The notes: a model not told the origin generated them from the letters alone. A stretch of DNA of 64,000 nucleotides from Flavobacteriales bacterium (GCA_002717515.1 PBEC01000017.1:9159-73158); one strand, 5' to 3'. Positions 3,311-57,362 are shown, counted from the stretch's first letter. Numbers and translations: made by a program.

Positions 3311-3582
3311 AAACACATTTTAAATTTCTGAGAACTACTTATCAGAATATAAAGCGCATTTATTTCTTAAGCCCCATCAATTTAACCGGAATTAATTGCT
3401 GTTCACTTACAAAGTTTTTTTTTGAAACATTGACACATTTCTTTTAAGCCTACGTAACCAAAGTACTAAATACATTTAGAATATAGTATTTATTGCGCTT
3501 GATACTGCAATTTACATACTACATAAAATGAGTTATTTAAAAATAAAAGCTACATAAACTGTAGTATTAAAATTTATTAGCC

Positions 3583-12977: not shown

Positions 12978-13673
12978 ATGAAACTATACTTGTTAACCTC
13001 TTCTATCCTACTGCTCACAATAGTAAATAATGAATTAAAAGGCCAAACAATATGGAATGGACCTTCATATGAGTTTAAAAAAAATGACTTCGCAGATCCA
13101 GGCGATAAAATAAATCAAGACTCCTTATCCCCAAGCGTTGCAATAACAAGAGGTAACAATGGTGAAATTTATAATGCTTTCTCCGAAACAGAAGCCGATA
13201 AAGGGATAAGTCCCTTGGGAACTGAGTGGGCAGTTGGCGAAATAAACAATATTGAAAACTTAACATTTACCTCCTTTAGAACAGCAGTTGTTAAGCCTAA
13301 ATTTTCTGTCGGACAAAAACTTGTTTGTCACATTATTAACGAAGATATTTATTTATCGGTTGAATTTACAACTTGGACTCAAGGTAGTTCAGGCGGCGGT
13401 TTTACCTATACTCGCTCAACTGAGCTCTCTACCAATACAAACAGTGATTTATCCCATGAAAAAATAACAGTTTACCCAAATCCATCGACACATTTTTTAA
13501 CAATTATGGGTATTACTCAACCTCAGCACTTTCAAGTATATGATCTTGTAGGCTCGGAAATAATAAAAGGAGAACTTTCAAATAATCAGAAATTAGATAT
13601 TTCACATCTAAACAGTGGAATGTACTTAATGAAATTTGAGGACGGAAGTACTGTTAGATTTTTGAAAAAATAA
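12978..13673 (+). CDS. Secreted protein with a T9SS (Por) C-terminal sorting domain
   Basis: Signal peptide. The C-terminus ITVYPNPSTHFLTIMGI...VYDLVGSEI...LDISHLNSGMYLMKFEDGSTVRFLKK is a classic TIGR04183-type CTD. Confidence 0.6.
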   Translation: MKLYLLTSSILLLTIVNNELKGQTIWNGPSYEFKKNDFADPGDKINQDSLSPSVAITRGNNGEIYNAFSETEADKGISPLGTEWAVGEINNIENLTFTSFRTAVVKPKFSVGQKLVCHIINEDIYLSVEFTTWTQGSSGGGFTYTRSTELSTNTNSDLSHEKITVYPNPSTHFLTIMGITQPQHFQVYDLVGSEIIKGELSNNQKLDISHLNSGMYLMKFEDGSTVRFLKK

Positions 13674-41252: not shown

Positions 41253-41504
41253 ATGGACAAATTACAACAACTTTCCAACATCAGGGCTGAAGAGGTAAAT
41301 ATCTCCAAAATCACTGATTTTTTTGAAACTATAAAAAGTGTAAAAAACATCAATATAGAAGGTGCTGAAAATCATATTGTAAAATCAGATAACCTTCGAG
41401 AAGATAAAGTTGTTCACTGTAACCCTGAAGAAAAAGCGTTGATTATGGAAAACTTTCCTGCTAAGCAAGGAACGTATTTAGTTGTACCTAAAGTAATTCA
41501 ATAA
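41253..41504 (+). CDS. gatC: Asp-tRNA(Asn)/Glu-tRNA(Gln) amidotransferase subunit C
   Basis: 83 aa. The C-terminal ..GTYLVVPKVIQ matches the GatC ..F.VPKV(I/V)E end. It sits immediately upstream of gatA (2-nt gap). Confidence 0.7.
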   Translation: MDKLQQLSNIRAEEVNISKITDFFETIKSVKNINIEGAENHIVKSDNLREDKVVHCNPEEKALIMENFPAKQGTYLVVPKVIQ

Positions 41505-41506
41505 AG

Positions 41507-42916
41507 ATGAGTCAGTCTATTATTCAAGACATTCAAAATAAACTAAACGAAAAGAAAATATCTTGCGTTCAGTTGGTTCGAGAGAAAATTGCAGCTCTAC
41601 AATCCTCAACTAAAAATGCAAATAATTTAATTCTGGATGAGCAAGCTCTGGAACAAGCAAAAATATGGGATGAAAAAATTGCTTCGGGACATATATTAAG
41701 TGGAATCGAAGGAATTCCATTTGGCGTTAAAGATGTTTATTTGTTGAAAGGAACGATTTCCACAGCGAGTTCAAATATTCTAAAAAACTACAAGTCTCCA
41801 TATACTGCTACAGCCATTCAAAAGTTAATTGACGCGGGAGCGATACCCATATGCAAAGAAAATTGCGATCAATTTGGACATGGTTCTACAAATGAAAATT
41901 CCGTTTTTGGTGTTGCAAAAAATGCACACAATGACGATAAAGTGGCAGGAGGATCATCAGGAGGCTCTGCAGTTAATGTTGCCGAAGGAAATACTGTTTT
42001 CTCAATTGGGGGAGACACAGGTGGTTCTATTCGTCAACCTGCAGGGTACAACAAAGTTTATGGACTAAAACCAACATACGGGCGAGTTTCTCGATATGGC
42101 TTGATGGCCTACACTTCATCTTCTGACTGTGTTGGACCTTTTGCTAATACCGTTAAGGATATCGCTACAACTCTCAATGTTATGAGTGGTAAAGATGGAA
42201 AAGATCAAACCACATTAACTTCTACCCCAATAGATGTTGAATCTTTTGATTCGAAAATAAAGGCTGGAACAAAGATTGGTGTCTATAAATCTTTTATCGA
42301 TCACCCGTCCTTAGAATCGAAAATCAAGACAGACTTTAACTCATTAATTGAAAAATTAAAAGAAAAAGGTGTTGAAATAAAAGAACTTGATTTTTTTGAT
42401 GGAGATACACTAACTGCCACCTATTACATCATTGCCCTTGCTGAAACCGCTAGTAATCTTTCTCGAATTGATGGAATCGCATTCGGAAATAGAGCTATGG
42501 ATAAAGAGAACCTTGCTTTAACTTACCTGGACACAAGAGGTGAAGGGTTCAGTCAAGAAACCAAAAGAAGAATTATCGCAGGAAATCAGGTTTTGTCGGT
42601 TGGTTATTCTGAGGAAATCTATAAAAAAGCCTTGGAGGTAAGAAAAGGAATTGAAGCGAAATTTGCTAAGGATTTTGAAGAAGTAGATTTTGTTTTATCC
42701 CCTACATCCCCACTTCTCCCTCCAACTATTGGAGAATCTTTGAAGGATCCTCTAACCATGTATTTAAGCGATATGTATACGGTAGGATTTAGCCTTGGTG
42801 GATTGCCCACATTGAGTGCTCCTTTTGTGGTTGAAAACAATGTGCAAATAACTGCTGCAAAAGAAAAAGACGAAGAAATATTAAGATTTGCATACGCAAT
42901 TGAGCAATCGTTATAA
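41507..42916 (+). CDS. gatA: Glutamyl/aspartyl-tRNA amidotransferase subunit A (amidase signature family)
   Basis: Amidase signature GGSSGGSAVNVAEG...GGDTGGSIRQPA, the Ser-cisSer-Lys triad context, and the size. Confidence 0.9.
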   Translation: MSQSIIQDIQNKLNEKKISCVQLVREKIAALQSSTKNANNLILDEQALEQAKIWDEKIASGHILSGIEGIPFGVKDVYLLKGTISTASSNILKNYKSPYTATAIQKLIDAGAIPICKENCDQFGHGSTNENSVFGVAKNAHNDDKVAGGSSGGSAVNVAEGNTVFSIGGDTGGSIRQPAGYNKVYGLKPTYGRVSRYGLMAYTSSSDCVGPFANTVKDIATTLNVMSGKDGKDQTTLTSTPIDVESFDSKIKAGTKIGVYKSFIDHPSLESKIKTDFNSLIEKLKEKGVEIKELDFFDGDTLTATYYIIALAETASNLSRIDGIAFGNRAMDKENLALTYLDTRGEGFSQETKRRIIAGNQVLSVGYSEEIYKKALEVRKGIEAKFAKDFEEVDFVLSPTSPLLPPTIGESLKDPLTMYLSDMYTVGFSLGGLPTLSAPFVVENNVQITAAKEKDEEILRFAYAIEQSL

Positions 42917-42958: not shown

Positions 42959-45900
42959 ATGAGTTTAGATAAGAAAATTGAAGAATTAGGATATGAAATT
43001 GTAATGGGTGTTGAAACCCACGTACAACTAAACACTAAAACCAAGTTGTTTTGTTCATGCGATAATGAGGAATCAACAACACCCAATGAAAATATTTGTC
43101 CAGTTTGTACAGGTCAAATGGGTACCCTTCCGGAATTAAATAAAGCCGCGGTAGAAAAATCAATTATTCTAGGTGCTGGTTTAAATGCCAAAATACCTGA
43201 TTTAGTAAGATGGGATAGAAAACACTACCAATACCCTGATTTACCCAAAAACTTTCAATTGACGCAACTCGATCACCCCATCATTGAAGGTGGAAGTGTT
43301 AAATGTTTTCGAGACGACGGAAGTTCTTTTACTGTTGATTTACATCATGCACATTTAGAGGAAGATGCTGGTAAGTTAGTTCACACGGATAAATACTCCT
43401 TAGTTGATTACAACAGATGCGGTACTCCACTGGTTGAGATTGTTACCGAGCCATGTTTACACAAAGTGGAGGATGCAGAGATTTATGCTAAATACATTCA
43501 AAAAATAGCAAGGCATTTAGGTGTTTCGGACGCTGACATGGAAAAAGGCCAAATGCGTTCAGATGTTTCGATTTCATTAAGAAAGATAGGGACTAAAGAT
43601 TTAAACCCGCGTACAGAGATAAAAAACTTAAATTCCTTTGCTTTTATGTCTAAAGCGGTTGCAGAGGCTGTAAGCAAGCAACTTAATTATTACGAAGAGC
43701 ATGGAGTTCCTTCTCCCGACCAGGTAACTGCTCAGTGGGATGCGGAAGCTCAAGTAACTCGTGTGATGCGTTCTAAGGAAGATGCTGCAGATTACCGCTT
43801 CTCGCAAGAACCAGATATTCCATGGTTAGATGTTTCTGATTTAAAAGCGAGAACATCTGTTGATGTTTCATTGCTACCAACTGTTGTTGAAGAGGAATTA
43901 ATTACTGGTGGTGTCAGGCCTCAAGATGCCAAATTCTTCTCTGGTGATAAAGAAAGATCAAGAGTTGTAATTGGACTAAACGAGGGTGTTAATGACATTA
44001 AAGCAGTAGCAACTGTTTTAATGAACAATGTAAAACCAGAAGAATATTCAAACTTCTCAGAATTAAAACCTTACAACTCCTTACTTAAAAAATTCATTAA
44101 TAATGTTATCCCTGTAAATATTGTTAAGGAAGGTTTCCAGAATCTATACACCAACGCTGATTTTGATTACGAAGGATTTATCAAAGCGAACACTGTTTCG
44201 GAAGACCAGATTGATGCTGCAGTTGCTGAAATTGTTGCGGCAAATACAGAGATTGTTACCGCTATTACTAGAGGAAATCAAGGTCAAGCTGGTCGTTTAG
44301 TTCCTCAGGTAATGGCTAAGACTGGAAAAGGAGTTTCTGGTAAGATTATTCGTGAGAAAATTTTAGCAGCTTGTTCTGGCAAAGGAGCACAAACCGAAAA
44401 TGAGGGCGAGAATACTCAAAAAGGAGTAACAAAAGAAGCCAAGAAAAGAGATCTTAACGACGATACGCCGTCTAAATACCAGGATGTAAGAATTGTTAAG
44501 GATACTTACAGAACACATAGAATTCCTGATGTTTCCAAAGAAAACCTAAACCAGGAGTTAACACTTGGTGGATGGATTGCTTCTATTCGTGACCACGGGG
44601 AGCTGGTTTTTATTGACCTTAGAGACGCTTCTAATGAGGTTTTTCAAGTAAGAGTAACGCGTGATCAGGTGAAAGACATCGATGATATCGCTAGACTGAA
44701 AGACGAGTCTGTGATCGCAGTTAAAGGTCAGGTTATCGAAAGAGCTGCTGACGACATTAACCCTAATACAAGAACAGGTAATATCGAGCTGGTTGCAAGT
44801 CACATCGACGTATTAAACGTTTCGAAGAACTTACCTTTCGAGATTAAGAAAGCAGACAAAACGAATGAATCTGTTCGGATGGAGTATAAATTCTTAGACC
44901 ATAGAAATCAGTCGTCAAAGAAGGCTATTATCAACCGTCACAAAGTGATCAAGTTAATCCGTGACATGTTAGATGATCAAAATTTTATTGAAGTAGAAAC
45001 TCCTATACTATCTGGTGGTACAGACGAAGGAGCTCGTGAGTTCATCGTTCCATCAAGGGTTCACAAAGGGAAATTCTACACACTACCTCAAGCACCTCAG
45101 CAATACAAACAAATGCTAATGGTTGGAAGTTTTGAAAGATACTTCCAGATTGCTCGTTGTTTCCGTGATGAGGACTCAAGAGGTGACCGTCAGCCAGAAT
45201 TCACACAAATGGATTTGGAAATGTCCTTTGCGTCAATGGATGAAATTATCCAGCTCAACAGCGACCTATTGGTAAATGTTGTTAAAACGGTTTATGCCAA
45301 ATCCAAATGGCAATTAAAAGATTTTATTACCATTACCTATGCTGAAGCGATGGAAAAGTATGGTTGTGATCGCCCTGATTTGCGTTTTGGTTTACCTATG
45401 AAAACCATTACGGAAGTAGTTGCCAACACTCCTTTTCAGGTATTTAGAAATCCAATTGAAAATGGTGGTATTGTTAAAGCTATCAAAGTCTCCAAAGAGG
45501 AAATGGGTGACAAAAGAATGTCCAAAGGCGCTATTGAAAAGCTCACGACTTTAGCTCAAAGTAATGGTTTAGGTGGACTAGCCTATATTATTGTAAATGA
45601 GAATGATTTACAATCCCCAATAATCAAATTCATAGGGGAGGATATTGCAGCTAACATCATTAAAATAATGGATGCAAATGTAGGAGACATCGTCTTTTTC
45701 TCCGCTGCTGATTTTGGGACAGCAAACAAAGCTTTAGATGCGGTTAGACAAGAATTAGGGGCAATGCTCAACCTTATTCCTAAAAACGTATTGCAACCAG
45801 CTTGGGTCATTGACTTCCCTCAGTTTGAAGAAAAAGAAGACGGTGGATGGACGTTCTCACATAACCCATTCTCCATGCCTAAGCCAGAATTTGTTGAACA

Positions 45901-46291
45901 ACATATGAATGCTGAAAACCCAGGAAAAATCCTGGCACAACAGTACGACTTGATTCTCAATGGTTACGAAATCGGCGGAGGCTCTGTACGTGCCCACAGG
46001 GGCGACATACTTGAAGCTACATTTAAAATTATGGGATACAACCACGAAGAAATGCTGGCTTCAGTCGGAAATGTATACAACGCTTTCCAATACGGAGCTC
46101 CACCACACGGAGGAATTGCTTGGGGATTAGATAGACTCTTGATGATTCTTGAGAAGAAAGATTCGATTAGAGATGTTATGGCCTACCCGAAAACCGGTTC
46201 TGGTGAGGACTATTTATTCAACGCACCAAATGTACTTTCTGCAAAAAAGGTATCTGAAGCGAATGTTCAGTTGATTGAAAAGACCAAATAG
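42959..46291 (+). CDS. gatB-aspS: In-frame fusion of GatB (amidotransferase subunit B, aa 1 to about 475) with aspartate--tRNA ligase (bacterial type, aa about 520-1110)
   Basis: N-terminal GatB blocks: GYEIVMGVETHVQL, CPVCTGQMGTLPELN, YPDLPKNFQLTQ, and a GatB/YqeY tail VMAKTGKGVSGKIIREKIL. A Lys/Glu-rich linker follows. Then comes the AspRS OB-fold LTLGGWIASIRDHGELVFIDLRD, class II motifs FQIARCFRDED (motif 2) and GGGSVRAHRGD...GAPPHGGIAWGLDRL (motif 3), with the bacterial GAD insertion. One continuous 1110-codon ORF. Confidence 0.85.
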   Translation: MSLDKKIEELGYEIVMGVETHVQLNTKTKLFCSCDNEESTTPNENICPVCTGQMGTLPELNKAAVEKSIILGAGLNAKIPDLVRWDRKHYQYPDLPKNFQLTQLDHPIIEGGSVKCFRDDGSSFTVDLHHAHLEEDAGKLVHTDKYSLVDYNRCGTPLVEIVTEPCLHKVEDAEIYAKYIQKIARHLGVSDADMEKGQMRSDVSISLRKIGTKDLNPRTEIKNLNSFAFMSKAVAEAVSKQLNYYEEHGVPSPDQVTAQWDAEAQVTRVMRSKEDAADYRFSQEPDIPWLDVSDLKARTSVDVSLLPTVVEEELITGGVRPQDAKFFSGDKERSRVVIGLNEGVNDIKAVATVLMNNVKPEEYSNFSELKPYNSLLKKFINNVIPVNIVKEGFQNLYTNADFDYEGFIKANTVSEDQIDAAVAEIVAANTEIVTAITRGNQGQAGRLVPQVMAKTGKGVSGKIIREKILAACSGKGAQTENEGENTQKGVTKEAKKRDLNDDTPSKYQDVRIVKDTYRTHRIPDVSKENLNQELTLGGWIASIRDHGELVFIDLRDASNEVFQVRVTRDQVKDIDDIARLKDESVIAVKGQVIERAADDINPNTRTGNIELVASHIDVLNVSKNLPFEIKKADKTNESVRMEYKFLDHRNQSSKKAIINRHKVIKLIRDMLDDQNFIEVETPILSGGTDEGAREFIVPSRVHKGKFYTLPQAPQQYKQMLMVGSFERYFQIARCFRDEDSRGDRQPEFTQMDLEMSFASMDEIIQLNSDLLVNVVKTVYAKSKWQLKDFITITYAEAMEKYGCDRPDLRFGLPMKTITEVVANTPFQVFRNPIENGGIVKAIKVSKEEMGDKRMSKGAIEKLTTLAQSNGLGGLAYIIVNENDLQSPIIKFIGEDIAANIIKIMDANVGDIVFFSAADFGTANKALDAVRQELGAMLNLIPKNVLQPAWVIDFPQFEEKEDGGWTFSHNPFSMPKPEFVEQHMNAENPGKILAQQYDLILNGYEIGGGSVRAHRGDILEATFKIMGYNHEEMLASVGNVYNAFQYGAPPHGGIAWGLDRLLMILEKKDSIRDVMAYPKTGSGEDYLFNAPNVLSAKKVSEANVQLIEKTK

Positions 46292-46318: not shown

Positions 46319-48106
46319 ATGATTCACAGAATTAAAAATATATTTAAAGTCGGTTTCTTGAAAAAACTTCTTAAGGTATCCCTTTTATTTCTAACGTTTT
46401 CAGTTGTTGGTTACTTTCTTCTTGGGAAAATTGAGTACAAGGATGGCTTAACATACAAAACAGTAATCGATAACAAAATATACTCTATTCTCACTGAAAA
46501 AATAAACGACGGAAAGGCTTTTGAGGTTGAATATATAGAACCTTCTGATTTCAGTGAATTTAACTCCATTTCAATAGAGATGGATTCCTCTGTTTGGGAC
46601 AGTATGTTGTCGAATTACACTTTTTATCAAAGCAACAGGGAAAAATTTAGCGTACTGGAAAATAATGATTGGAGAAAAATAAAACTAACAGTTAACGATA
46701 CAACATATAATGCCAAAATGAAATGCCATGGAAAAACCCCTGATGGTCATTTTCATGAAAATATAATGTCATTAACCGTAAAGTTTAAAAAGAAAAGACC
46801 TCACTCCTTCTCAAAAAGAATGAATCTAATCATATACAAAAGGCTAAGAGATAGCCCTGCTGTAATAAATTATTTGAGTAAAAAACTAAATATTCATTAC
46901 ATAGAGAGTAAATTATTTTCAGTAAATATCAACAATGGAAAAAAGCATTTGATGCACTTGGAAGAAAGGTGTAATGAAGGTTTTTTCAAAAAGAGAAATT
47001 TAAACAACATATTAATTTGCAAAAAAGACTTGAACAAAACATTTTTAATTAACTGTTTGGAAGTCGATAAAAAGCAAAAAAACACCTTTTTTAAAAAGGA
47101 TGAAGTTTTGCAAGTATTGGAGAAAAAAATATCAAATTCTGATTTGTCTTCAAAAAATAAAAAAACAATTTACCGCTTAAACAAGCTGATATCCAACCAT
47201 GAAACAGACAGCCTTTTAAAAGTCCTAAACGTTGACTATTTTTCCAGGTATGAAGCATTAAGAAAAATTGGAGGATTTACTAATCATGGATTTGAAAAAC
47301 ACAACTTGCTGCTCTATCCTGATACTTCAAATGGAAAACTAATCATGATTCCTCATCGAGATCATTTTGTAAGAGAAATCGGTAACCAATTTTTCTTTGA
47401 AAAAGAGTTGTTGGACAAATTTTACTGGCAAAAACACCTTTTTCTGGAGTGTCTAGTTCTTAATGATTCTATAAGACTCAAATCTTATAAGCATTTATAT
47501 AATCTGCAAAGGAACAAAACATCAATATTAAGAGAACTAGACAGTATTGCTGATCTTCACTCTAGATTTCAAAGAAAATCTTTAATTAAGAAATGGTTTT
47601 ATCACTCGGCCTTAGGTCAAGAACAAACAGAGATGGATATGACTGATATATTTGTAAATAATTTAGAAAAAATAATGAGCGACTTAAACCCAGGAACACC
47701 TGAAGTTATAGTGAACTCAAACAGCGATTCAACCATTCACCTGTCCATAATTCCAAATTCCCTGAATGAAATAAAAATTAGCGGTATTGAATTGAAAAAC
47801 AATCATGAATTTGATATGATGCTACTCCGAGAATACACATCAAAGGAGGTTCTCATTTCGGATACACTTTTATCTATAAAAAAACAGAAGAATGAAGACT
47901 TTAAAAAACACTTAAAAAAAATTTCCTTTTTTAATAAACTCGATAAAGACTGGAACGAAATAAACTGTACATATCAACTTAAAATCACTGCCCGTTCAAA
48001 TTCGAACAATGTATATGTAAGTTTTGAGAATATGAATATTTTTAATTTTTCAAACAATATGAAAAAATTAAAATTCCTTTTAAACTCTAACCTTGCCGCT
48101 CGGTAA
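46319..48106 (+). CDS. CotH-family (atypical kinase-like) protein, membrane-anchored
   Basis: N-terminal TM. The block IKLTVNDTTYNAKMKCHGK...SLTVKF...IYKRL...YLSKKLNIHYIESKLFSVNINNGK..LMHLEE...FFKKRNL follows the CotH core pattern (..G..Y.V.(I/M)(R/K).(K/H)G..S...KKS.K(I/V)KF........L.NN..D.S..RE.L..ELFR..G.....S.FV.L..NGEY.GLY.L.E.ID..FL.RNF). Confidence 0.5.
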   Translation: MIHRIKNIFKVGFLKKLLKVSLLFLTFSVVGYFLLGKIEYKDGLTYKTVIDNKIYSILTEKINDGKAFEVEYIEPSDFSEFNSISIEMDSSVWDSMLSNYTFYQSNREKFSVLENNDWRKIKLTVNDTTYNAKMKCHGKTPDGHFHENIMSLTVKFKKKRPHSFSKRMNLIIYKRLRDSPAVINYLSKKLNIHYIESKLFSVNINNGKKHLMHLEERCNEGFFKKRNLNNILICKKDLNKTFLINCLEVDKKQKNTFFKKDEVLQVLEKKISNSDLSSKNKKTIYRLNKLISNHETDSLLKVLNVDYFSRYEALRKIGGFTNHGFEKHNLLLYPDTSNGKLIMIPHRDHFVREIGNQFFFEKELLDKFYWQKHLFLECLVLNDSIRLKSYKHLYNLQRNKTSILRELDSIADLHSRFQRKSLIKKWFYHSALGQEQTEMDMTDIFVNNLEKIMSDLNPGTPEVIVNSNSDSTIHLSIIPNSLNEIKISGIELKNNHEFDMMLLREYTSKEVLISDTLLSIKKQKNEDFKKHLKKISFFNKLDKDWNEINCTYQLKITARSNSNNVYVSFENMNIFNFSNNMKKLKFLLNSNLAAR

Positions 48107-48395
48107 TTAATTTTCTTACAAATTGTTTACTCTTGTAATGCAAGAAAAAACAAACGTTCATTAAGACCATATAATTCACATCTATATTTTTAGGTAAAAC
48201 ACATTAAAAAAACAAAAAAGAACTAATATCTCAATTACCTTTTTGCTTAAGACTTAAAAACAAAACTAAAACCCTAAAAAAAAGACTTTTAAATATTTTA
48301 AAACCTATTTTCTAACCTGTATTTTTTTTCCTTTTTTTCTTAATTAAATCAGGTTTTAATTCCATAATTTTGTCCTTAATATAACACCAAATGAT

Positions 48396-50141
48396 ATGAT
48401 GAAAAAATTACTTTTAGTACTTATGGGGACAGCAGCACTGTCCCTCAGCGCACAAGATGACTGCGTATCCTCAACAGGATTTATTGACTCTTACGATGCT
48501 TCCGAAGCACCAAGTGACGGAAACAATCTTTCTCTCGGTTATTGGGGGTCAAGTGGTGGAGTCTATGACTTCACAAGAAATAATGGAGACTTAGAGATCA
48601 CTGTAGATCAAGCTCAAGGAGGATGGACCCCAATGGGATTTACATTTTCAGAATCAGTAGATTTAACTGGTAATACCCTCGATATATCTTTAACCAATGA
48701 TGGATCCGATGGAATTGAAGTTTATTTCTCACTAATTAGTAATAACACAACAGGTGTTGATGCTGAAAGAATTACCGCGACAAATACAGGATCACTTTTC
48801 GGAGGAGTTGTAAGTGGTGGAGCTACAGTAAATTATTCATTTGATATTTCCAATGGTAGGATTCATCAATGGGTTGCAAGTTCTGACGACTGTACAGACG
48901 GAACAATGGCCGGAAGCTACTGTATGAGAGATAAAGGTTTTGACATCACTAAAGTTACAGGGATTGAATGGACAATAAATGGAGCTGCATCTGCAGAAAC
49001 AGGATGGAGCAACCCTGAACTAATAGCTCACCCTGTTAAAATTCATTCAATTGGATCAGGAACATGTACAAATGGCGGTGGAGATAACAGTAACGACGGT
49101 GGAGATGACAGTAACGACGGTGGAGACGACAGTAACGACGGTGATGACAATAGCGACGGAGACACGAATGGTCAGGCCTGTAATGACTTAGACGACCATG
49201 GACACGGTACTTGGTACGATAATTTAGACGTTCAGCCAAATGGTGTTGTAAAGTGTACTTTTGAAAGAGATAGTATCCTAAACACCAAGTATGGAGCTTT
49301 AGACAAAGGTCTTTTACAGGAAAGTAATGATGCAAAATACTGTGGTATGTGTGTTGAAGCAATCGCTCCTGACCACAATAATGTTCCAGTAATTATTCAA
49401 ATTGTAGATGAATGCCCTGATTGTTACGACAGAAATTCTGACGGATCAATCAACACTGGTGTAAATACAAAATTTGGAGATATCGACTTAAGCATTACAG
49501 CTTTTAAAGCTCTGCTTCAAGAGGATCATGTTGCTTTAGGAATTGGTGATTTTGACTGGAAAGAGGTATCATGTCCTTGGCAGAAGCCTTTACACTTAAT
49601 TTTTCAAGGTTCACACGATTGGTACGCCAAGGTTATCGTTGCAAATCATGTAAACAGAATAGCTACTGTTGAAATCTCAAATGACGGTGGAAGTTCATGG
49701 GAACTAATGGAAAGAGGCGAAGACAACGGTTTTGTAAAAGGAAGTTATGGTGGAGAAACTAAGGCCTTTAAAATTACAGATATTTATGGAAGCGAAATCA
49801 TAATGAACAATATTGACATGGTTACAAACGGAAATAACATAGTTGATGGATCTGAAAACTTCCCAGCATGTGGACTTACTACATCAACTCAAGATTTGAA
49901 TACTCTTGATTATGTAACTGCTTTTCCTAACCCTGCAAATTCATCCATTACCTTTGTTGGTATTGAAGATGTTGAAAAAATGGAAATTGTGAGTGTAAAT
50001 GGTCAAGTTGTTGCAAGCAAAAACTTCCAAACAAGCACAGCTCAAATATCACTTGATATTTCACAATTAGCACCTGGCCTCTATGTTGCAAAAATGACAG
50101 GTGAAAACAATACAGGTGTTGTTACATTTGTAAAGAAATAA
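48396..50141 (+). CDS. Secreted bacterial expansin-like protein (EXLX: DPBB D1 plus CBM63-like D2) with an N-terminal unknown domain, an acidic Gly/Asp/Ser/Asn linker and a T9SS C-terminal sorting domain
   Basis: Signal peptide. The D1 region GHGTWYD...CGMCVEAI...VIIQIVDECPDCYDRNSDGSINTGVNTKFGDIDLSITAFKAL parallels EXLX1 T.Y....Y.E...G....VYVTD.CPEC..G.LDLS..AF. The D2 region WKEVSCPWQKPLHLIFQGSHDWYAKVIVANHVNRIATVEIS is like EXLX1 D2. The C-terminal TIGR04183-like CTD is FPNPANSSITFVG...YVAKMTGENNTGVVTFVKK. Confidence 0.7.
   Translation: MMKKLLLVLMGTAALSLSAQDDCVSSTGFIDSYDASEAPSDGNNLSLGYWGSSGGVYDFTRNNGDLEITVDQAQGGWTPMGFTFSESVDLTGNTLDISLTNDGSDGIEVYFSLISNNTTGVDAERITATNTGSLFGGVVSGGATVNYSFDISNGRIHQWVASSDDCTDGTMAGSYCMRDKGFDITKVTGIEWTINGAASAETGWSNPELIAHPVKIHSIGSGTCTNGGGDNSNDGGDDSNDGGDDSNDGDDNSDGDTNGQACNDLDDHGHGTWYDNLDVQPNGVVKCTFERDSILNTKYGALDKGLLQESNDAKYCGMCVEAIAPDHNNVPVIIQIVDECPDCYDRNSDGSINTGVNTKFGDIDLSITAFKALLQEDHVALGIGDFDWKEVSCPWQKPLHLIFQGSHDWYAKVIVANHVNRIATVEISNDGGSSWELMERGEDNGFVKGSYGGETKAFKITDIYGSEIIMNNIDMVTNGNNIVDGSENFPACGLTTSTQDLNTLDYVTAFPNPANSSITFVGIEDVEKMEIVSVNGQVVASKNFQTSTAQISLDISQLAPGLYVAKMTGENNTGVVTFVKK
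49074..49165 (+). repeat. About 4.5 imperfect tandem copies of a 21-bp unit encoding the (G)GDDSND acidic linker of the expansin-like protein
   Basis: ggtggagataacagtaacgac / ggtggagatgacagtaacgac / ggtggagacgacagtaacgac / ggtgatgacaatagcgacgga. On the opposite strand it produces a spurious HRRYCH-repeat ORF (49036..49362). Confidence 0.8.
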
Positions 50142-50162
50142 GTTCTTATGAAAAGAAGCTTT

Positions 50163-50197
50163 AAAAGGGGAGCGTAACGCTCCCCTTTTTTATTTTT
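50163..50197 (+). terminator. Rho-independent terminator after the expansin-like gene
   Basis: aaaaGGGGAGCGtaaCGCTCCCCttttttatttttt is an 8-bp GC-rich stem, a 3-nt loop and a long T-tract. Confidence 0.85.
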
Positions 50198-50235
50198 TTA
50201 ATACCTTCATACATTAATTTTAATTGCTTTAAAAT

Positions 50236-52179
50236 TTGAAGTATCTTTTTTTTGTACTTATTCTTTTACTAGAGATATCGTCAAGCTCATGCAGTCAAAC
50301 CCTGTTACCTGAGAAAAGGCTCGAGGAGCAAAACCATTGGTTTACGTCCTGTGAATCCACAAAATTGATTAATAAAGTTCGGTTTTTTTCAGACGGTAAA
50401 GGTTTAATTAAATCTCAAAACATAATTTGTGATTCCATTTCAAGATCTGGAAAATTTAGTTTGATTATGAAGCAAAACAAAAAATTTGCTTTTGAGACAT
50501 CAATAAAAAAAATAAAAAAAGGCGATTATTTTCTCGCATCCGTCTGGGTCAAGGGTTCAATAAGTTTACCTAAACTAACAGCTGTTTACAACAAAAGATT
50601 TAACACAAAAAACAAAGTTTTAAAAAAAGAGAACGGGTGGAGCTATCTTGAAATAAGAATACATATAAAGGAAGATGCACCAGAATTAAAATTTTATGTT
50701 TTTAAACCGGATAAAATACAGATGATTTTAGACGACTTTCACGTCTATAAGCTCCCCAATAAAATGAACTCAAAAACTAATCAGCTTGAGGGTATCGAAA
50801 AAGTTAACCTAAAAGTTCCTGAGGATAATTTAATTAAAGTTATTGAGCAAAGAAAACAAGCATTTAATGACAAAATGCTAAGTAAAAAAACAAAAAAATG
50901 GATTAAAGTAGAAGCAAACGGAAAAAAGGCAAAAATGAGATTAAAAGGAGATTGGCTGGACCATTTGTCGAACTACAAATGGAGCTACCGAATAAAAACA
51001 ACACAACCACCATTTGTAGAGTATTCGATAACAAATCCTATTTCAAGAAATTTTTTAATTGAATTTTCCGCTCAAAAAATAATGCGCTCAGAAGGAATTT
51101 TTACAACTAATTATTCTTTTTGCTATGTTTCTACGAACGACTCAATGAAGGGGATTTATGGATTGGAACAACACTTTAATAAAAAGTTAATTGAAACCTG
51201 GAAATTCGGAAGTGGAGACATCTTGAAATATGATGAAAATGATGTTTGGAAAATCAGAAAAAAAAATAATCTAAAAGATAGACAGGAGCTCAACTACCTG
51301 GATTGCTCTAATATTCTTTCGTACATAAATAAAGGCAATTCAGAACATATGAAAAACAACGGCAAAACATTGGACATATTAAAGAAAACTGACTTTCCTG
51401 TAGATTCAATATTTGATATTGATTATATGGCAAAATACTGCGCTTTGATTGATTTATTTAACGCACATCACGGTATATTTTGGCACAATATAAGACTCTT
51501 TAAAAGCGATTCAACTCATAAATACTACCCTATTGCCTTTGACTTGAGTACCGATAAAAATTCCAACAATGATGACTTGCTGTTTCAAAAAATAGATAAA
51601 GAGCCAATTTTTATTGGATTATTTCAAAATAAAAAATTTAAAAAGAAATATTTTAATCAACTTAAAATTTATTCATCAGATGATTTTCTGAATCGAATAA
51701 ATACATTTCTAGGTGAAGAGCACAAACTCTATTCGAAAGCCATTCTTCAGGAATACGACTCTGTATGGATTCAAAATGAATTATACCGAGAAAGGGCTCA
51801 GCAAATAAAATTATTAATTCAAAACGGGCTTAAAGACACATTGAACACACTTAAATTCGACACAAAAAACACGAATCTTTTAAACAACGAGTACGAGTTC
51901 GAGCCGGTCATTTCCGCGAAAGCTTACAATCAAGGAAACGGTAAAATACTAATCATGAACTTCTATAATAAACCCATTGAAATAATATCTTTTGAGGATG
52001 ATAAAGGACGACCGGTAAAAACCTCATCAAAACAAATACAAGCATACAAAAAGGCTTTCTCAAAAGCATCGTATTATATACACAGCACGAAAACTAAATT
52101 AAAATGGTGTGTTGTTAGCGTTAACAAAAAAAGATATCGAATAAAAATACGTAAAGGCGCATACCCTATAAGCTATTAA
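50236..52179 (+). CDS. CotH-family (atypical kinase-like) lipoprotein
   Basis: Signal/lipobox ..EISSSSC. The core block KMRLKGDWLDHLSNYKWSYRIK...ITNPISRNFLIEFSAQKIMRSEGIFTTNYSFCYVSTNDSMKGIYGLEQHFNKKLIE matches the CotH pattern. Confidence 0.55.
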   Translation: MKYLFFVLILLLEISSSSCSQTLLPEKRLEEQNHWFTSCESTKLINKVRFFSDGKGLIKSQNIICDSISRSGKFSLIMKQNKKFAFETSIKKIKKGDYFLASVWVKGSISLPKLTAVYNKRFNTKNKVLKKENGWSYLEIRIHIKEDAPELKFYVFKPDKIQMILDDFHVYKLPNKMNSKTNQLEGIEKVNLKVPEDNLIKVIEQRKQAFNDKMLSKKTKKWIKVEANGKKAKMRLKGDWLDHLSNYKWSYRIKTTQPPFVEYSITNPISRNFLIEFSAQKIMRSEGIFTTNYSFCYVSTNDSMKGIYGLEQHFNKKLIETWKFGSGDILKYDENDVWKIRKKNNLKDRQELNYLDCSNILSYINKGNSEHMKNNGKTLDILKKTDFPVDSIFDIDYMAKYCALIDLFNAHHGIFWHNIRLFKSDSTHKYYPIAFDLSTDKNSNNDDLLFQKIDKEPIFIGLFQNKKFKKKYFNQLKIYSSDDFLNRINTFLGEEHKLYSKAILQEYDSVWIQNELYRERAQQIKLLIQNGLKDTLNTLKFDTKNTNLLNNEYEFEPVISAKAYNQGNGKILIMNFYNKPIEIISFEDDKGRPVKTSSKQIQAYKKAFSKASYYIHSTKTKLKWCVVSVNKKRYRIKIRKGAYPISY

Positions 52180-53740
52180 AAAAAACTATTTTCTTCTCCA
52201 GTACATTAGGAGATGTTTCAATTTGATGCTTAAATCGATTTAAATCTTTTGCTAAAAAAGGTATAAAAGACACAACTCTTTCCATGGGTTTTGAACCTGG
52301 AAAAAGTTTATTGATAATATTTACTAATTTCAAAATATCTTCCTGATGCTTTTTCTTTTCTGCCTTTAAGAATCTTTTTTCAACATTTTTGAGAGCTGAA
52401 TTAGCCCTCTTTTCCTCACCTTCAATTACCTTCTTCAATTGCACATCAATCTCATCTCCTTTTATCTTTAAATTATGAAAAAACTTTTTTAAGAATTCAA
52501 AATCCTGATCAAGTGAAATAGGATTGGACGACAAAAACTTGGTTAGTGCATTAATTTGAACATTAACGTCATCAAACAAGGCTTCCGAAAATAAATTTCT
52601 TGAACTGAGCCAATCGAAATTTTTTTCAGTCAATACAAAATAAGAATTTCTCAAAATTGGTATTGGAAAACCAATCTTTAGAGCATTAAAAACAGGTTTA
52701 AGTTCTAACCAATAGGAAACCTCCCCCGCGCCACCAACATAAGCCAGGTTAGGAAACAAGATTTCTTGATAAACAGGGCGAAGCAAAACATTTGGACTAA
52801 TTTTCTCAGGTGTTTTATCAATTAGCTCTTCTATTTCATCAGGGGTCCAAAACATGGATTGATCTGAAGTCGAAAACCCTTCTTTCGTTCTCACAAATCT
52901 CTTTCGAATTCCATTCTCGATGTAAAACAAATTTATCTCCCTAGGTTTAACTTGAAGTTTGTAATCCTGTTTTATTTTGTTGAGATGATCTTTACTTGAA
53001 TTGGTTACAATCTGTTCAAAAAATTCTTTTCGAGCAACGTCTTTAAACAGTGTTTTTAATTCTCTTGAATCCGCATCAAAAATAAGCAAACCCTCTTCTT
53101 TAAAAAGTTCTCTAATAAAAACCCTTGTTATGTGACTTAAGTTCTTTCCTGAATCAAAAGCCTGATTAATAAGCTCTTTAACATGGCTAAATTCTTTATC
53201 ATCTCCTAAAACCTGATTTACCTCTTTTATAAAACTCTTAAAATGTTTACTCTGAATCCTCCCCACAGGTCCAGCGTTGTTTCCGGGACAACTTATGGTT
53301 TTTCCAAACAGGTTCACTTTTGAAATCTCTTGATAATCGTGATCCTCTGATGCCATCCAAAAAATAGGTAAAACTGCATTCTGTGATGTTGAAATTTGTT
53401 TAGAGAGTTTTATTACATCCATAATTTTTGTGTAAAAAAACAACGGCCCTCCTAAAAGCATCAACTGATGTCCTGTGGTTATCGTAAAAGTAGTTTCTTT
53501 CGAAAAAAGAGCTAAGTTAAACTTCTCTTTTTCAGTAAGTTCAAATGGTGAATACTGATTTTTCAGAGCTTTATAAACTATTGCTCTATTACTGGAGCTG
53601 TAACTTCTACCTTTGTTATCCAACAACTGCTTCTCAGAGTAATCCCAGTTAACAATTTTTTTAGCTTTTAACTCTCCCGATAAATAATCTGAAATAATTC
53701 TTGGGTAAAAATCAACTTTATTGGATTTTATTAAATTCAT
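52166..53740 (-). CDS. bshC: Bacillithiol biosynthesis cysteine-adding enzyme BshC
   Basis: TGHQLMLLGGPLFFYTKIMDVIKL and PIFWMASEDHDYQEI align to B. subtilis BshC (..GGQQAGLLTGPLYTIHKI.. and ..PIFWVAGEDHDLDEI..). About 524 aa, as expected. The start overlaps the upstream gene stop (ATGA). Confidence 0.8.
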   Translation of the reverse strand: MNLIKSNKVDFYPRIISDYLSGELKAKKIVNWDYSEKQLLDNKGRSYSSSNRAIVYKALKNQYSPFELTEKEKFNLALFSKETTFTITTGHQLMLLGGPLFFYTKIMDVIKLSKQISTSQNAVLPIFWMASEDHDYQEISKVNLFGKTISCPGNNAGPVGRIQSKHFKSFIKEVNQVLGDDKEFSHVKELINQAFDSGKNLSHITRVFIRELFKEEGLLIFDADSRELKTLFKDVARKEFFEQIVTNSSKDHLNKIKQDYKLQVKPREINLFYIENGIRKRFVRTKEGFSTSDQSMFWTPDEIEELIDKTPEKISPNVLLRPVYQEILFPNLAYVGGAGEVSYWLELKPVFNALKIGFPIPILRNSYFVLTEKNFDWLSSRNLFSEALFDDVNVQINALTKFLSSNPISLDQDFEFLKKFFHNLKIKGDEIDVQLKKVIEGEEKRANSALKNVEKRFLKAEKKKHQEDILKLVNIINKLFPGSKPMERVVSFIPFLAKDLNRFKHQIETSPNVLEKKIVFFNSL

Positions 53741-55200
53741 TTGTTTTGTGTTCCATATTCCTCAATCGGATTCTCCAATACGCTATACCTAGAATTACTC
53801 AACGTAATTATGGAAGAGGCTGTGTAAAACCCAATTCTTGTTTCAGAATATTTGTAATCAATCAACGTTAGTTTTACAATCTTATTTATTGAAAGTTCTA
53901 TGTAATGGCCGTATCTTATAAGCTTGAAGTCTACAGAATAATCGTTACCAACAACAAATTGATTGGTTTGTAAATTTTTGAAAACAAAATTATTTTGAGT
54001 GTCATCAGGGTTGAAACCCCACGCTCTTATTTGAACATAACCACTTTTAAAATCAAGCGATATATAGTAGCCACTTCCATCATCTCCTTCAGCCAACAGC
54101 AATCCACACTTTCCTATGCCTTCCATAGCAATTGTCCCCTCCCATATGTATGCTGCAGAAATTCGCTCGAAAGTAAACAATTCATATCCTGACCTTGATG
54201 TCATCCACCATTTACCCTGTACATTCTCAAACTTGGCAGTAGGATTATTATACATAGGCTTGACTTCTGGAAAGGCTTTTTGAGTATGAATTTCAGTAAC
54301 TTTTTCTGTCCATTTATAAAATGACTTAAGATATAACTTCCCTTCCGAATTGACCGCCAGCTCTTTTGGTGGAGGCAACACTCGTTTAGAATTTACTTTA
54401 CGATCAAGAAAATAAAAACCGTAAACAAGATTATGATCTCCGTCTTTTACAATTCTTGCGGCATAATTTCCTTGAGGCATCAAAACATCATGATGAAAAG
54501 ACTGATACTCTCCATCAAAAGAATCCGAGTGCCAATAACGAACTTTTATATCTTCTCGAATTGATCCAATGAGAAAAAACCGACCTTCCATCTCTATTAA
54601 ACACGGACATTCAATATCATCATAAGCCAAAGGGAATAATATCGGCTTTTCAGGCTCAAATCCATTTTCGGTTCTTTTATAAGCCGCCACACAACCTCTT
54701 CTGTAAACAGGACCCGTGCTTGCTCTGGCACATATTAACAGATACTCCAAGCCTTTATTCTTAAATAAAAAAGGATCTCGAAAACTTAGCCATGTCCTCG
54801 GATTATTCTTAACATCTTCATAGTAAGGAGCCTGAGATTCTATAGGCAAGTCCTCAGGAAAAGTTTTATCCCAACTAATTAAATCTTTAGAAATCGCTCT
54901 TCCAACTCTTTGATTAATCCCTCGCTCCTCCAGCTGCAACCCCGTATAAAACATCTCAAAACTACCGTCTTCACAATCCGAAACGTCCATTGTCCACAAC
55001 ATATCATCATCCCACTCGCCTGGATCTCCAACGAAAATAGCGTTCTTTACCCTACTCCATGAAATTCCGTCCTTAGAAACTGCATGCGCAATGTAATCGT
55101 GATTAGGTATTATTAAATGAAATAAATGATAAACTCCATTATGGACATGAACTTCCACATCCCCAATTTCCCAATCTGTAAACCCACTTCCTGTATACAT
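53737..55200 (-). CDS. GH32-family-like (beta-fructofuranosidase/invertase-like 5-bladed propeller) glycoside hydrolase with a degenerate N-terminal nucleophile motif
   Basis: FRDPFLF matches the RDP motif and DIECPCLIEMEG matches the EC(P) acid/base motif at the expected spacing. GVYHLFHL resembles GEYHLFYQ. The canonical WMNDPNG is replaced by FTDWEIGD right at the N-terminus. A C-terminal beta-sandwich-like domain is present. Confidence 0.5.
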   Translation of the reverse strand: MYTGSGFTDWEIGDVEVHVHNGVYHLFHLIIPNHDYIAHAVSKDGISWSRVKNAIFVGDPGEWDDDMLWTMDVSDCEDGSFEMFYTGLQLEERGINQRVGRAISKDLISWDKTFPEDLPIESQAPYYEDVKNNPRTWLSFRDPFLFKNKGLEYLLICARASTGPVYRRGCVAAYKRTENGFEPEKPILFPLAYDDIECPCLIEMEGRFFLIGSIREDIKVRYWHSDSFDGEYQSFHHDVLMPQGNYAARIVKDGDHNLVYGFYFLDRKVNSKRVLPPPKELAVNSEGKLYLKSFYKWTEKVTEIHTQKAFPEVKPMYNNPTAKFENVQGKWWMTSRSGYELFTFERISAAYIWEGTIAMEGIGKCGLLLAEGDDGSGYYISLDFKSGYVQIRAWGFNPDDTQNNFVFKNLQTNQFVVGNDYSVDFKLIRYGHYIELSINKIVKLTLIDYKYSETRIGFYTASSIITLSNSRYSVLENPIEEYGTQNK

Positions 55201-55205
55201 ATGAA

Positions 55206-57362
55206 CTATTTCAATTTAAAATGCTCAAGTCCTTCCAGAATACCCGCTGCAGCATACTTTTTTGCTACGTATAATTTTTTTCTGGTCCTTAAGTGACTTA
55301 ATTCTTCTGATGCATTACCAACAACAATTCCATTTATGGGTTCCCGGAACATGTCCATATCATTTCCTGAGTCTCCACATGCGTAAACCTTATTCAACTG
55401 TAGGCCCCATTTATGACAAAGATAAAGGATTGCATTTCCCTTTGAGGCTCTTTTCGGAAGGATATCAACAAATTTATTGTGTGACGCTATTACATTTATA
55501 TGATACCAGTCGTTGCCTAATCGTGACTTTATTTTTTCTTCATTATACTTTTGTGAGTCACAGTAATAAGAAATCTTATGTGGGTTTTGAGCATTTTCCT
55601 CCTGTAAAACCAACCAATCTAAAGATTTAAGAGCGTCAACAATTTTAGATCGGTCCCATTTGAAGTCGAGGTATGCACTCCAATCCTCATCTTTACTATT
55701 TAGGTCTGTATCGTAATATATTTGTGTACCAACTGAACACACGATAAAATCAACATCTAATTTATATTCATCAACAACTTCTTTTACCAAATCAAAATTT
55801 CGTCCCGAAGACAAAGCAAAACTAATTCCAGTCTCTCTATTTTGAAGGAATTTTTTTAAATCCTCTATTCCTGGATCGCCATGCTCAGGAGCAATCAAAG
55901 TACCATCAATATCAGAAATAATCAAACTTTTACTCTCTTTTAAATGCTTTATATGTTCTTTTGGAGCGTTAAGTTCCTTGGCTGTTTTTGGCTCAGAACG
56001 ACTGATACTTTCCTGGACCCAGCTAACATACACTTCTATGTGAGCATCCCAACTGTAATGCTTTTTGGTGTTTAATATCCCATTATCACTAAAATGACGC
56101 CATTTTTGCTCATTCGTAAGTATTTTTTTTATACTTCTTGTTATGTCAGCCTTATCCATTGGATCAACCAACAAACCATTTTTCATCCTTGGCACAATTT
56201 CAGATGGACCACCATTCTTTGTAATTACAACAGGTAATCCTGTTCCTCCTGCCTCAATTGTAGTTAAACCGAAATTTTCATGCAAACAGATATTTGCAAA
56301 AACTCCACGCTTATTGGCGCAATATTGATAAATCAGAGCTACTTCATTTTCAATATCGTGTCTTTTAGGTATCGCCATTTTCCCGTATAAATCATACTTG
56401 TCCATAAGGAGCAAAAGTTCTGTAAGAACCTCTTTTTCTTGCTCAGGCATAGTATTTATATCCTTTCTAATACCGGCAAAAATTGCCAGATTAGCTAAAG
56501 CTTGTAACTCCTTATCTTCTCCATACGCCTCAATTAAAAAATGTAAATTTTTTCTTCTATCTGGACGGCTAAGAGCCATAATTACGGGTTTATTCGGGTT
56601 CGTCAAGAACTTTTCGATATTTTGACCAACCCAATACCTACGTTGAAGTTGAATTAAGTCCTCTTCCTCCTGAAATCGTTTAATGTAATAAGGTGTAAAC
56701 TTTTGTATATCTATTCCAGGAGGCTGAACGTGAAATTGAGCCTTATCATAATTATCGTATTCCTCCCAGTCTGCTATTTCTAAATAAGTTGATGTAACTA
56801 TAAACTCACTCAAAGCCAGCGCATTCTCCTCTGCACTGATTCTTTGTTTAAATTTAAACCTTTCCTCAGCCTCCTTTTCTGTCATTCCAGATGCAAGCAT
56901 TTTTTGCTTTTTAGCCAATCCAAGAGAGTGCCCTGTATGAGCGAAAGGAACATTCAAGCGTACAGACAGTCGAGAAGCTGCATAACCAGCGTCTCCATAA
57001 TGAGAATGTATCCAATCCGGCTGAATATCATATTCTTTTATATGTTTCAAAGCATTTTCTACAAATTCATCAAGATGAGCCCAAAGCTCTTCTTTCATTT
57101 TATACTTTAATCCACCAAATTCAATTCGACGAATATCAAACTTAGGATTAATCTCTTCAATGGTCGCACCATACTCCGACGAAACTTCATCATCTTTAAT
57201 TTTTCTTGTGAACAAATGCACATGTTCAACCTCTTCATGATTGGAAAGGTATTCTGAGAGTTCAAGGACATATTTTGTTTGTCCTCCATTATCGGCGTCT
57301 CTTCCAATTTCAAGACCACTTCCCTTTACCAGGCCATGGAGATTAATGATGAATATTCTCAT
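55206..57362 (-). CDS. sps: Bifunctional-architecture sucrose-phosphate synthase (GT4 glucosyltransferase domain plus C-terminal sucrose-phosphatase-like HAD domain)
   Basis: N-terminal HGLVKGSGLEIGRDADNGGQTKYVLEL, the GT-B core, and a C-terminal HAD motif LIISDIDGTLI...GDSGNDMDMF. 718 aa, like the cyanobacterial SPS. Confidence 0.85.
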   Translation of the reverse strand: MRIFIINLHGLVKGSGLEIGRDADNGGQTKYVLELSEYLSNHEEVEHVHLFTRKIKDDEVSSEYGATIEEINPKFDIRRIEFGGLKYKMKEELWAHLDEFVENALKHIKEYDIQPDWIHSHYGDAGYAASRLSVRLNVPFAHTGHSLGLAKKQKMLASGMTEKEAEERFKFKQRISAEENALALSEFIVTSTYLEIADWEEYDNYDKAQFHVQPPGIDIQKFTPYYIKRFQEEEDLIQLQRRYWVGQNIEKFLTNPNKPVIMALSRPDRRKNLHFLIEAYGEDKELQALANLAIFAGIRKDINTMPEQEKEVLTELLLLMDKYDLYGKMAIPKRHDIENEVALIYQYCANKRGVFANICLHENFGLTTIEAGGTGLPVVITKNGGPSEIVPRMKNGLLVDPMDKADITRSIKKILTNEQKWRHFSDNGILNTKKHYSWDAHIEVYVSWVQESISRSEPKTAKELNAPKEHIKHLKESKSLIISDIDGTLIAPEHGDPGIEDLKKFLQNRETGISFALSSGRNFDLVKEVVDEYKLDVDFIVCSVGTQIYYDTDLNSKDEDWSAYLDFKWDRSKIVDALKSLDWLVLQEENAQNPHKISYYCDSQKYNEEKIKSRLGNDWYHINVIASHNKFVDILPKRASKGNAILYLCHKWGLQLNKVYACGDSGNDMDMFREPINGIVVGNASEELSHLRTRKKLYVAKKYAAAGILEGLEHFKLK

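Follow-up and report, generated by a model that had tools for sequence, protein, structure and literature searches.

Some Bacteroidetes, and also marine bacteria, are known to carry microbial expansins (Chase et al., bioRxiv 10.1101/637728), fusions of expansins to other domains are likewise on record, and the EXLX type is represented by the structures of BsEXLX1/YoaJ (2bh0, 4fer), CmEX (4jcw) and the fungal expansin TlEXLX1 (7wvr; PMC12779228). Type-A cargo of the type IX secretion system (T9SS) includes the T9SS-dependent cellulases of Cytophaga hutchinsonii (PMC11205867), and CotH of Bacillus is a Ser/Thr kinase (5jd9/5jda, PF08757), with Asp228 as the inactivating site in the B. subtilis protein (PMC7821199). 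An extracellular CotH-module protein, CseP, is coded beside a cellulose-active gene in Clostridium thermocellum; it is tied to the cellulosome by a dockerin, and its function is not established in its paper (PMC6083626). Here we compare with these systems a locus in a 64,000-nucleotide stretch of DNA (the window) from Flavobacteriales bacterium (GCA_002717515.1, PBEC01000017.1:9159-73158), in which an expansin gene, B, stands between two genes, A and C, whose products appear to be remote relatives of CotH:

46319-48106, + strand: gene A, membrane-anchored CotH-fold protein, 595 amino acids (aa)
48396-50141, + strand: gene B, modular T9SS-secreted expansin, 581 aa
50236-52179, + strand: gene C, probably a lipoprotein, from a divergent CotH subfamily; 647 aa, TTG start

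A sequence-only reading of the window had already placed these three open reading frames (ORFs), all of which were recovered, and had suggested that they form a three-gene module for loosening plant or algal cell walls or attaching to them. The module did not survive comparison with relatives. We think it probable that A, B and C, whose products are secreted or belong to the envelope, evolve independently of one another and have come together by chance in a variable slot that lies between gatC-gatA-gatB::aspS (gatB and aspS being fused) and bshC in a marine, low-GC bacterium, and that B belongs to an ordinary though apparently undescribed T9SS expansin family, with no new system. The three genes are without sharp GC anomaly in a window of 28-39% GC.

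This reading is carried by the gene orders of relatives. The expansin alignment, scanned over 185,579 species genomes, gave 20 loci, 12 of them of Bacteroidota type with a C-terminal sorting domain (CTD), and more came from metagenome look-ups; 34 fetched loci were then scanned with profile hidden Markov models (HMMs) of A and C, and the window ORFs were compared by BLASTP. Across these 34 loci the full A-B-C trio, whose recurrence in other genomes had been suggested as a check, is present in the window only, and a CotH-like ORF adjoins the expansin just twice, in L026 and in the same-species contig L030. Among some 14 related expansin loci from Flavobacteriales and other Bacteroidota (own species excluded) an A-like gene is absent throughout and C is present in L026 only, and both A and C are found without the expansin. 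The most informative arrangements are:

L009: aspS-expansin-bshC, neither A nor C; collinear with the window over about 37-60 kb (aspS 94%, sucrose-phosphate synthase 91.5%)
L033: sigma-gatC-gatA-gatB::aspS-expansin
L026 (closest relative): aspS-expansin-C-bshC, no A (aspS 91%)
L025: aspS-AraC regulator-GH9 cellulase (CelD_N, T9SS CTD)-expansin (aspS 91.7%)
L027-L029: C next to bshC-GH32-sucrose-phosphate synthase, no expansin (C 34-47%)
L030 (same species): gatA-gatB::aspS-A-B, the contig stopping ahead of C (99%); besides the window, the sole locus where A adjoins B

These gene orders make the expansin a stable tenant 3′ of gatB::aspS and C a lineage-conserved neighbour of bshC, and A is most parsimoniously a recent insertion. 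To bound the insertion of A, intergenic sequences from the window, L026 and L009 were aligned, but the alignment (AT-rich, 49% column identity) was uninformative. At other expansin loci the neighbours are large beta-helix/Ig proteins with type-B CTDs or unrelated housekeeping genes. The stretch of L025 syntenic with A and B (L025:2922-8291; metagenome-assembled genome (MAG) Flavobacteriales 139586_S187) is itself a compact candidate cellulose-attack cluster. T9SS-CTD expansins of a type typical for Bacteroidota also occur on L011 and L014, in a MAG labelled Glaciecola sp. (gammaproteobacterial), probably through mis-binning.

Signals around B likewise do not support A-B-C as a single transcription unit, at least as predicted from the DNA: an AT-rich spacer of 289 nt lies before B, with a promoter-like box near its end, and a terminator is predicted between B and C.

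48365-48372, + strand: promoter-like box TAATTTTG, 23 nt ahead of the B ATG
50163-50199, + strand: predicted intrinsic terminator downstream of B (stem of 12 bp, 7 of them G-C; 3-nt loop; T-run)

The TAATTTTG box fits the Bacteroidota -7 promoter consensus, TAnnTTTG. A scan for sigma-70 promoters gave no excess, with 30 matches against 25 +/- 5 in shuffled sequence.

The product of gene B divides as follows:

48396-48452, + strand: predicted signal peptide, residues 1-19 (alignment, hydrophobicity)
48453-49073, + strand: N-module of about 205 aa, residues 20-226 (all-beta model, domain context)
49074-49175, + strand: acidic D/N/G/S linker, residues 227-260
49176-49574, + strand: expansin domain D1 (DPBB), residues about 261-393 (family profile against 7wvr, 9ms5 and 4jcw)
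49575-49865, + strand: expansin domain D2 (CBM63-like), residues about 394-490 (aligned to 2bh0 residues 78-207)
49923-50138, + strand: T9SS type-A CTD, residues 510-581 (PF18962, TIGR04183)

Residues 295-489 match the NCBIfam model expansin_EXLX1 (NF041144) at E 7e-22 with 77.7 bits, under the curated cut-off of 100 bits; B alone finds TlEXLX1 (7wvr) in the PDB at E 7e-14, and a profile of 26 family members reaches it at E 2.7e-25 over residues 3-199 of 199, with D1 and D2 contiguous, and further matches 9ms5, Clavibacter 4jcw and B. subtilis YoaJ 2bh0 (E 1e-14). All 26 aligned relatives match NF041144 (E<=0.001, best 1.3e-34) as well as TIGR04183. By these matches B is a two-domain EXLX-type expansin, as had been proposed from its sequence, and its family is a divergent expansin subfamily: the D1+D2 core is that of the described EXLX expansins, aligned end to end, whereas identity is at most about 30%, and B adds the N-module, an acidic repeat linker and the T9SS CTD. 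An RlpA/MltA-type DPBB protein, the unrelated family that might have been mistaken for an expansin, was rejected: Pfam DPBB_1 is marginal on B at just 12.9 bits, and both domains together fit the expansin structures.

Residues considered important in EXLX expansins are largely retained. The Asp equal to BsEXLX1 D82 and to the mutated CmEX Asp, the Thr of GxATxY and the Asp of vDxC are invariant in the B family; D364 of B aligns with D82, and also with the Asp that is mutated in 4js7 relative to 4jcw, while T272 and D338, invariant in the 26 sequences, align with their counterparts in CmEX and TlEXLX1 and map only indirectly to T12 and D71 of BsEXLX1 itself. Seven Cys are invariant in the family, in a pattern, CGxC...DECPxC, common to the fungal 7wvr. 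D275, which follows T-W-Y and might be a counterpart of the GH45-type catalytic base, Asp10, lies in a column that is N, T or D among relatives. Of the surface aromatics that had been named as a test of the expansin assignment, the alignment to 2bh0 places W409 at BsEXLX1 W125 and Y410 at W126, and F446 (Trp in most relatives) at F160, but the counterpart of Y157 is an Asp, D443; the D2 aromatic platform thus seems only partly kept.

The family is also marked by an insertion of 14-35 residues in D1, between DECPDC and GDIDLS (B residues 343-362, approximately 49420-49480), which is 14 residues long in B (YDRNSDGSINTGVN) and about 35 in the relatives P0087-P0089 and P0111 (ADRDADGNK...DADGNK...), and whose DxDxDG-like motifs recall calcium-binding loops. 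B is strongly acidic overall. NCBI holds a protein identical to B, named hypothetical protein, from a 'Flavobacteriales bacterium' MAG, and a relative there has as its start codon the second Met; databases label B relatives 'expansin (peptidoglycan-binding protein)' or 'T9SS type A sorting domain-containing protein'. Relatives are of marine metagenome origin, Tara included.

Flavobacteriales normally possess a T9SS, and B bears both signals expected of its cargo. The N-terminus is hydrophobic (MMKKLLLVLMGTAALSLSA, followed by Q), with A19 and Q20 near-invariant in relatives, and cleavage there would leave an N-terminal Gln. The CTD, also anticipated from the sequence, is over both curated cut-offs (PF18962, Por_Secre_tail, 44.5 bits against 27; TIGR04183, 39.9 against 23). 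B therefore has the same signal peptide and Por_Secre_tail arrangement as type-A cargo such as the C. hutchinsonii cellulases, and by analogy would travel the same way, but the passenger differs, being by family a non-hydrolytic expansin; the GH9 cellulase beside the L025 expansin bears the same tag as B. That T9SS export would be an unusual route for an expansin, as the sequence-only reading had it, is contradicted by the presence of the CTD (PF18962) in nearly all of 50 B homologue clusters, where it is the rule; the tag is a generic export signal of Bacteroidota. No paper describing T9SS-exported expansins was found in the literature searched.

Between signal peptide and expansin core lie two further parts, both foreseen in the earlier reading. 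The linker consists of Asp (35%), Gly (29%) and Asn (18%) for the most part, and a 21-bp tandem repeat within it (3.2 copies, 49076-49143) codes for GGDDSND; many B relatives (P0091, P0096, P0125, P0127 etc.) have in its place the Cys-rich motif CSDGI(Q/K/M)NQDETG(I/V)DCGGxxCxxC, once or twice. The N-module has no family match in Pfam or NCBIfam. Its AlphaFold model, made with six sequences, is all-beta with 13 strands (predicted local distance difference test score (pLDDT) 52, predicted template-modelling score (pTM) 0.50), and a counterpart of 52% identity occurs in P0133 (residues 353-561), where it has a glycoside hydrolase family 18 (GH18) catalytic domain on one side and a T9SS CTD on the other. 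In L026 (875-2569), the closest relative, the expansin is 89% identical in its C-terminal half and an unrelated N-domain replaces the N-module. Since it is found with a GH18 domain and swapped in L026, the N-module appears portable and exchangeable, as expected of a substrate-targeting module; the low-confidence model and, more strongly, the domain context suggest that it is probably a carbohydrate-binding beta-sandwich, and it is a candidate for a new carbohydrate-binding module (CBM) family.

For A and C the sequence-only reading had given CotH-family kinases, one transmembrane-anchored and one a lipoprotein. The assignment holds at the level of the superfamily, but Pfam CotH misses both proteins, even at E<=1, and searching Pfam, NCBIfam and the PDB directly with the two sequences gave nothing meaningful (FapD and Mis12 matches being noise). 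The features of the two genes are:

46367-46423, + strand: signal anchor of A, residues 17-35, the sole transmembrane-like segment
46550-47698, + strand: CotH-like alpha/beta core of A, residues about 78-460
47285-47305, + strand: catalytic-loop counterpart of A, H323-G-F-E-K-H328-N329 (A-family profile, A5, aligned to 5jd9)
47702-48088, + strand: C-terminal beta-sandwich domain of A, residues 462-590 (secondary structure of the model)
50236-50292, + strand: signal sequence of C, residues 1-19, ending in Cys19 (...ISSSSC), lipobox-like
50323-50775, + strand: N-terminal domain of C, residues about 30-180, possibly a beta-sandwich (weak match to CBM61 2xom, E 0.17)
50893-51855, + strand: CotH-like core of C, residues about 220-540 (approximate bounds)

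Family profiles make the connection. The A family became visible by exhaustive profile search, which gave 258 homologues against 4 by word-indexed search, and a profile of 49 of its sequences (A5) reaches B. cereus CotH (5jd9) at E 8e-6; the 23-sequence C-family profile reaches the same structure at E 2.1e-9 over residues 28-352. Pfam CotH itself matches 5 of the 49 A relatives and 15 of the 23 C relatives, though not C, and many of the 80 C homologues carry PF08757 and the NCBI name 'CotH kinase family protein'. The two families align by hhalign at E 4.6e-24, and the fold of the A model also supports membership, so that A and C are, on this profile evidence, remote members of the CotH fold superfamily. 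A and C themselves meet in BLASTP at E 0.006 as distant paralogues, and with a pairwise E of only that order a recent tandem duplication around B was rejected.

The kinase part of the claim fared less well. The catalytic Asp of the CotH D-G-F-V-H-N loop is His in both proteins by HMM alignments to the one solved CotH: in C this is H412, without exception in 23 sequences, and in A it is H323, shared by at least 90% of 49 relatives. The Asp concerned (D224 in the numbering of the 5jd9 alignment) would correspond to B. subtilis D228, by its 23-residue spacing to D251, the WDxD Asp. The His-Asn that follows the catalytic position is kept in both families, N329 being invariant in that of A and N418 aligned in C; C keeps the D251-equivalent metal-binding Asp as D436, and the acidic D348 of A is one position off that site, outside the HMM alignment with CotH. 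Invariant in the C family are RLKGDWxDH (235-243), H412-G-x-x-W-H417-N418 and D436, and the Lys position of RLKGD is His in the A family. With His in the place of the catalytic Asp, kinase activity is unsupported for A and C. They resemble Bacillus CotH in profile match and, by alignment, in the loop His-Asn, as C does in the metal Asp, but differ in escaping Pfam detection, in the His for D228, in their envelope anchoring and extracytoplasmic site, in the non-sporulating Gram-negative host, and in bearing extra N- or C-terminal beta domains, with many relatives fused to a right-handed beta-helix. No relevant description of CotH in Bacteroidetes or with polysaccharide was found in the literature.

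Both proteins look envelope-anchored. For A, the 19-residue Kyte-Doolittle mean reaches 2.09 in the only window above 1.8, the structure model has a helix (2-34) spanning this hydrophobic segment, and Lys/Arg before it would give an N-in, domain-out topology, in line with the transmembrane anchor of the earlier reading. A lipoprotein is plausible for C from its Cys19, since many relatives likewise have a Cys there; relatives end their signal sequences in a lipobox-like LSSC, LAGC or LTGC or have a transmembrane anchor instead. Most C homologues are about 1000 aa long with a C-terminal right-handed beta-helix, which many A relatives also carry beyond the beta-sandwich (Beta_helix in 13 of 49). 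The nearest A homologues (P0002 and P0003, 57-59% identity) lie in polysaccharide-biosynthesis clusters without an expansin, and by analogy this hints at a glycan-related role for A's CotH subfamily. Such clusters (L001:389-19368, ENA KOPF15 scaffold_9; L004) hold Wzm, Wzt with Wzt_C, GT2, AsnB-like, MBOAT, Acyl_transf_3 and GT1, and L001 has a second CotH-like paralogue at 2625-4202 (Pfam CotH 23.0 bits, A5 profile E 1.9e-36).

What then of a joint surface module, in which the CotH-like proteins would attach to plant or algal walls, or to the expansin itself, or modify them, while the expansin loosens the wall? The three genes are adjacent and on the same strand, their products would all be extracytoplasmic, the HMM scan finds the two CotH-fold genes within 6 kb and none elsewhere in the 64 kb, the B-C pair is kept in L026, and cellulosomal CotH-module dockerin proteins exist, CseP (Cthe_0044) adjoining Cel9N (PMC6083626). 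We nevertheless consider such a module very unlikely: no relative beyond this species has the trio, A and C are both met without the expansin (and, in contrast to the dockerin that ties CseP to its cellulosome, the adjacency here is not conserved), a strong predicted terminator and a 289-nt gap with a promoter-like box set B apart, both CotH-like proteins have His for the catalytic Asp, and A and C would be turned towards the periplasm or membrane, while cargo of the T9SS is delivered to the outside of the cell. A true module would join two poorly understood protein classes, extracellular CotH proteins and microbial expansins, in an attack on algal walls; comparison with relatives speaks against it. 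A related idea, prompted by the A relatives in polysaccharide clusters and the beta-helix fusions of both families, has the A and C families as extracytoplasmic glycan-modifying enzymes recruited beside a surface expansin, in a lineage-specific system that would remodel the cell's own glycan coat and loosen algal or particle walls for attachment, and to this we give scarcely any credence. Phosphotransfer by A, and perhaps by C, to a polysaccharide of the bacterium's own envelope, in the manner of Fam20-fold glycan kinases and with A as a displaced copy, is a tentative possibility that we doubt on balance: A homologues and a second CotH-like paralogue do sit inside an ABC-transporter-type glycan cluster, and Asn and acidic residues are kept in the catalytic and metal loops, but the catalytic Asp is His in both, as is the RLKGD Lys in the A family, and the domain is predicted to lie outside the cytoplasm, where ATP would be scarce.

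The substrate of B is a separate matter. Chitin is abundant in the sea, and a target other than cellulose, chitin or another algal glycan, with the exchangeable N-module setting specificity, has some appeal, given the N-module shared at 52% identity with a T9SS protein of the GH18 (chitinase) family, the swapping of N-modules between near-identical expansins and the loss of Y157 from the cellulose platform; loosenins, which are related to expansins, are reported to be active on chitin networks (PMC9888185). We hold it to be unlikely, however, as in L025 a GH9 cellulase gene accompanies that of the expansin at this locus, the counterparts of W125/W126 in D2 are aromatic, and the best NCBIfam match of B is the cellulose-binding EXLX1 model. 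Cellulose is favoured because of the adjoining GH9 cellulase in L025, and the module shared with GH18 leaves chitin or other glycans possible. Several points weigh against our account of three independent genes and a cellulose-directed expansin: several comparison loci have short flanks; B-C adjacency persists in the closest relative and CotH modules occur in cellulosomes (CseP beside Cel9N), so that a loose functional link is conceivable; the NF041144 score of B falls short of its cut-off; the CBM call leans on a low-confidence structure (pLDDT 52) and domain context; the GH18 enzyme with the same N-module speaks for chitin over cellulose; D443 replaces the third platform aromatic, Y157; and all function of A, B and C is read from sequence. 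We still consider independent genes in a variable slot the probable explanation.

The surroundings of this slot have features of their own. Gene A starts 27 nt past the gatB-aspS stop codon, and the genes upstream of it are:

41253-41504: gatC-like gene
41507-42916: gatA
42959-46291, + strand: GatB::AspRS fusion (gatB-aspS), 1110 aa

The fusion comprises GatB_N (15-294), GatB_Yqey (372-469), an OB anticodon domain (535-619) and tRNA-synt_2 (636-1079) with a GAD insert, the AspRS part being complete, and it is unbroken in the independent assemblies L009 (94% identity), L025, L030 and L033 (1111 aa). By its domains it would be a covalently linked 'transamidosome', and may be the most unusual item in this part of the window; no natural GatB-AspRS fusion was found described in the literature searched. 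Downstream, on the minus strand, lie bshC, which converges on gene C with a 14-nt overlap at the C 3′ end, a GH32-like gene and a sucrose-phosphate synthase/phosphatase fusion. This cluster of bshC, GH32-like gene and sucrose-phosphate synthase + S6PP fusion (52166-57362, - strand) is kept in L009, L026 and L027/28, which suggests that these marine Flavobacteriales make and turn over sucrose. Elsewhere the window codes for a bacterial alpha-2-macroglobulin of 1851 aa (24218-29773, - strand) with MG, bait-region and TED domains, and for a small protein of 231 aa (12978-13673, + strand) in which a T9SS type-A sorting domain (48.6 bits) is the sole recognised domain.

Putting B to work, we propose from knowledge of its family that it would be exported by Sec and then cross the outer membrane via the T9SS, where its CTD would be cut off and B released or tethered at the cell surface. 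The CBM-like N-module and D2 would dock it on a crystalline beta-glycan, most likely the cellulose of algal walls or particles, and D1 could then loosen the fibre non-hydrolytically, giving better attachment or glycoside hydrolase access. A, held by its membrane anchor, and C, by a probable lipid anchor, would act on the cell's own surface glycans or proteins, unlinked to the expansin, A most likely being a recent arrival from a family usual in glycan-biosynthesis clusters.

The two CotH-fold subfamilies missed by Pfam, with His for the catalytic Asp and one of them tied to glycan clusters, suggest that many Bacteroidota 'CotH kinase family' annotations may not be protein kinases. A new CBM family may be represented by the portable beta-module that an expansin has in common with a GH18 enzyme. 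A sizeable T9SS-expansin family in planktonic marine Flavobacteriales bears, in turn, on how these bacteria may attach to and open phytoplankton walls and marine particles.

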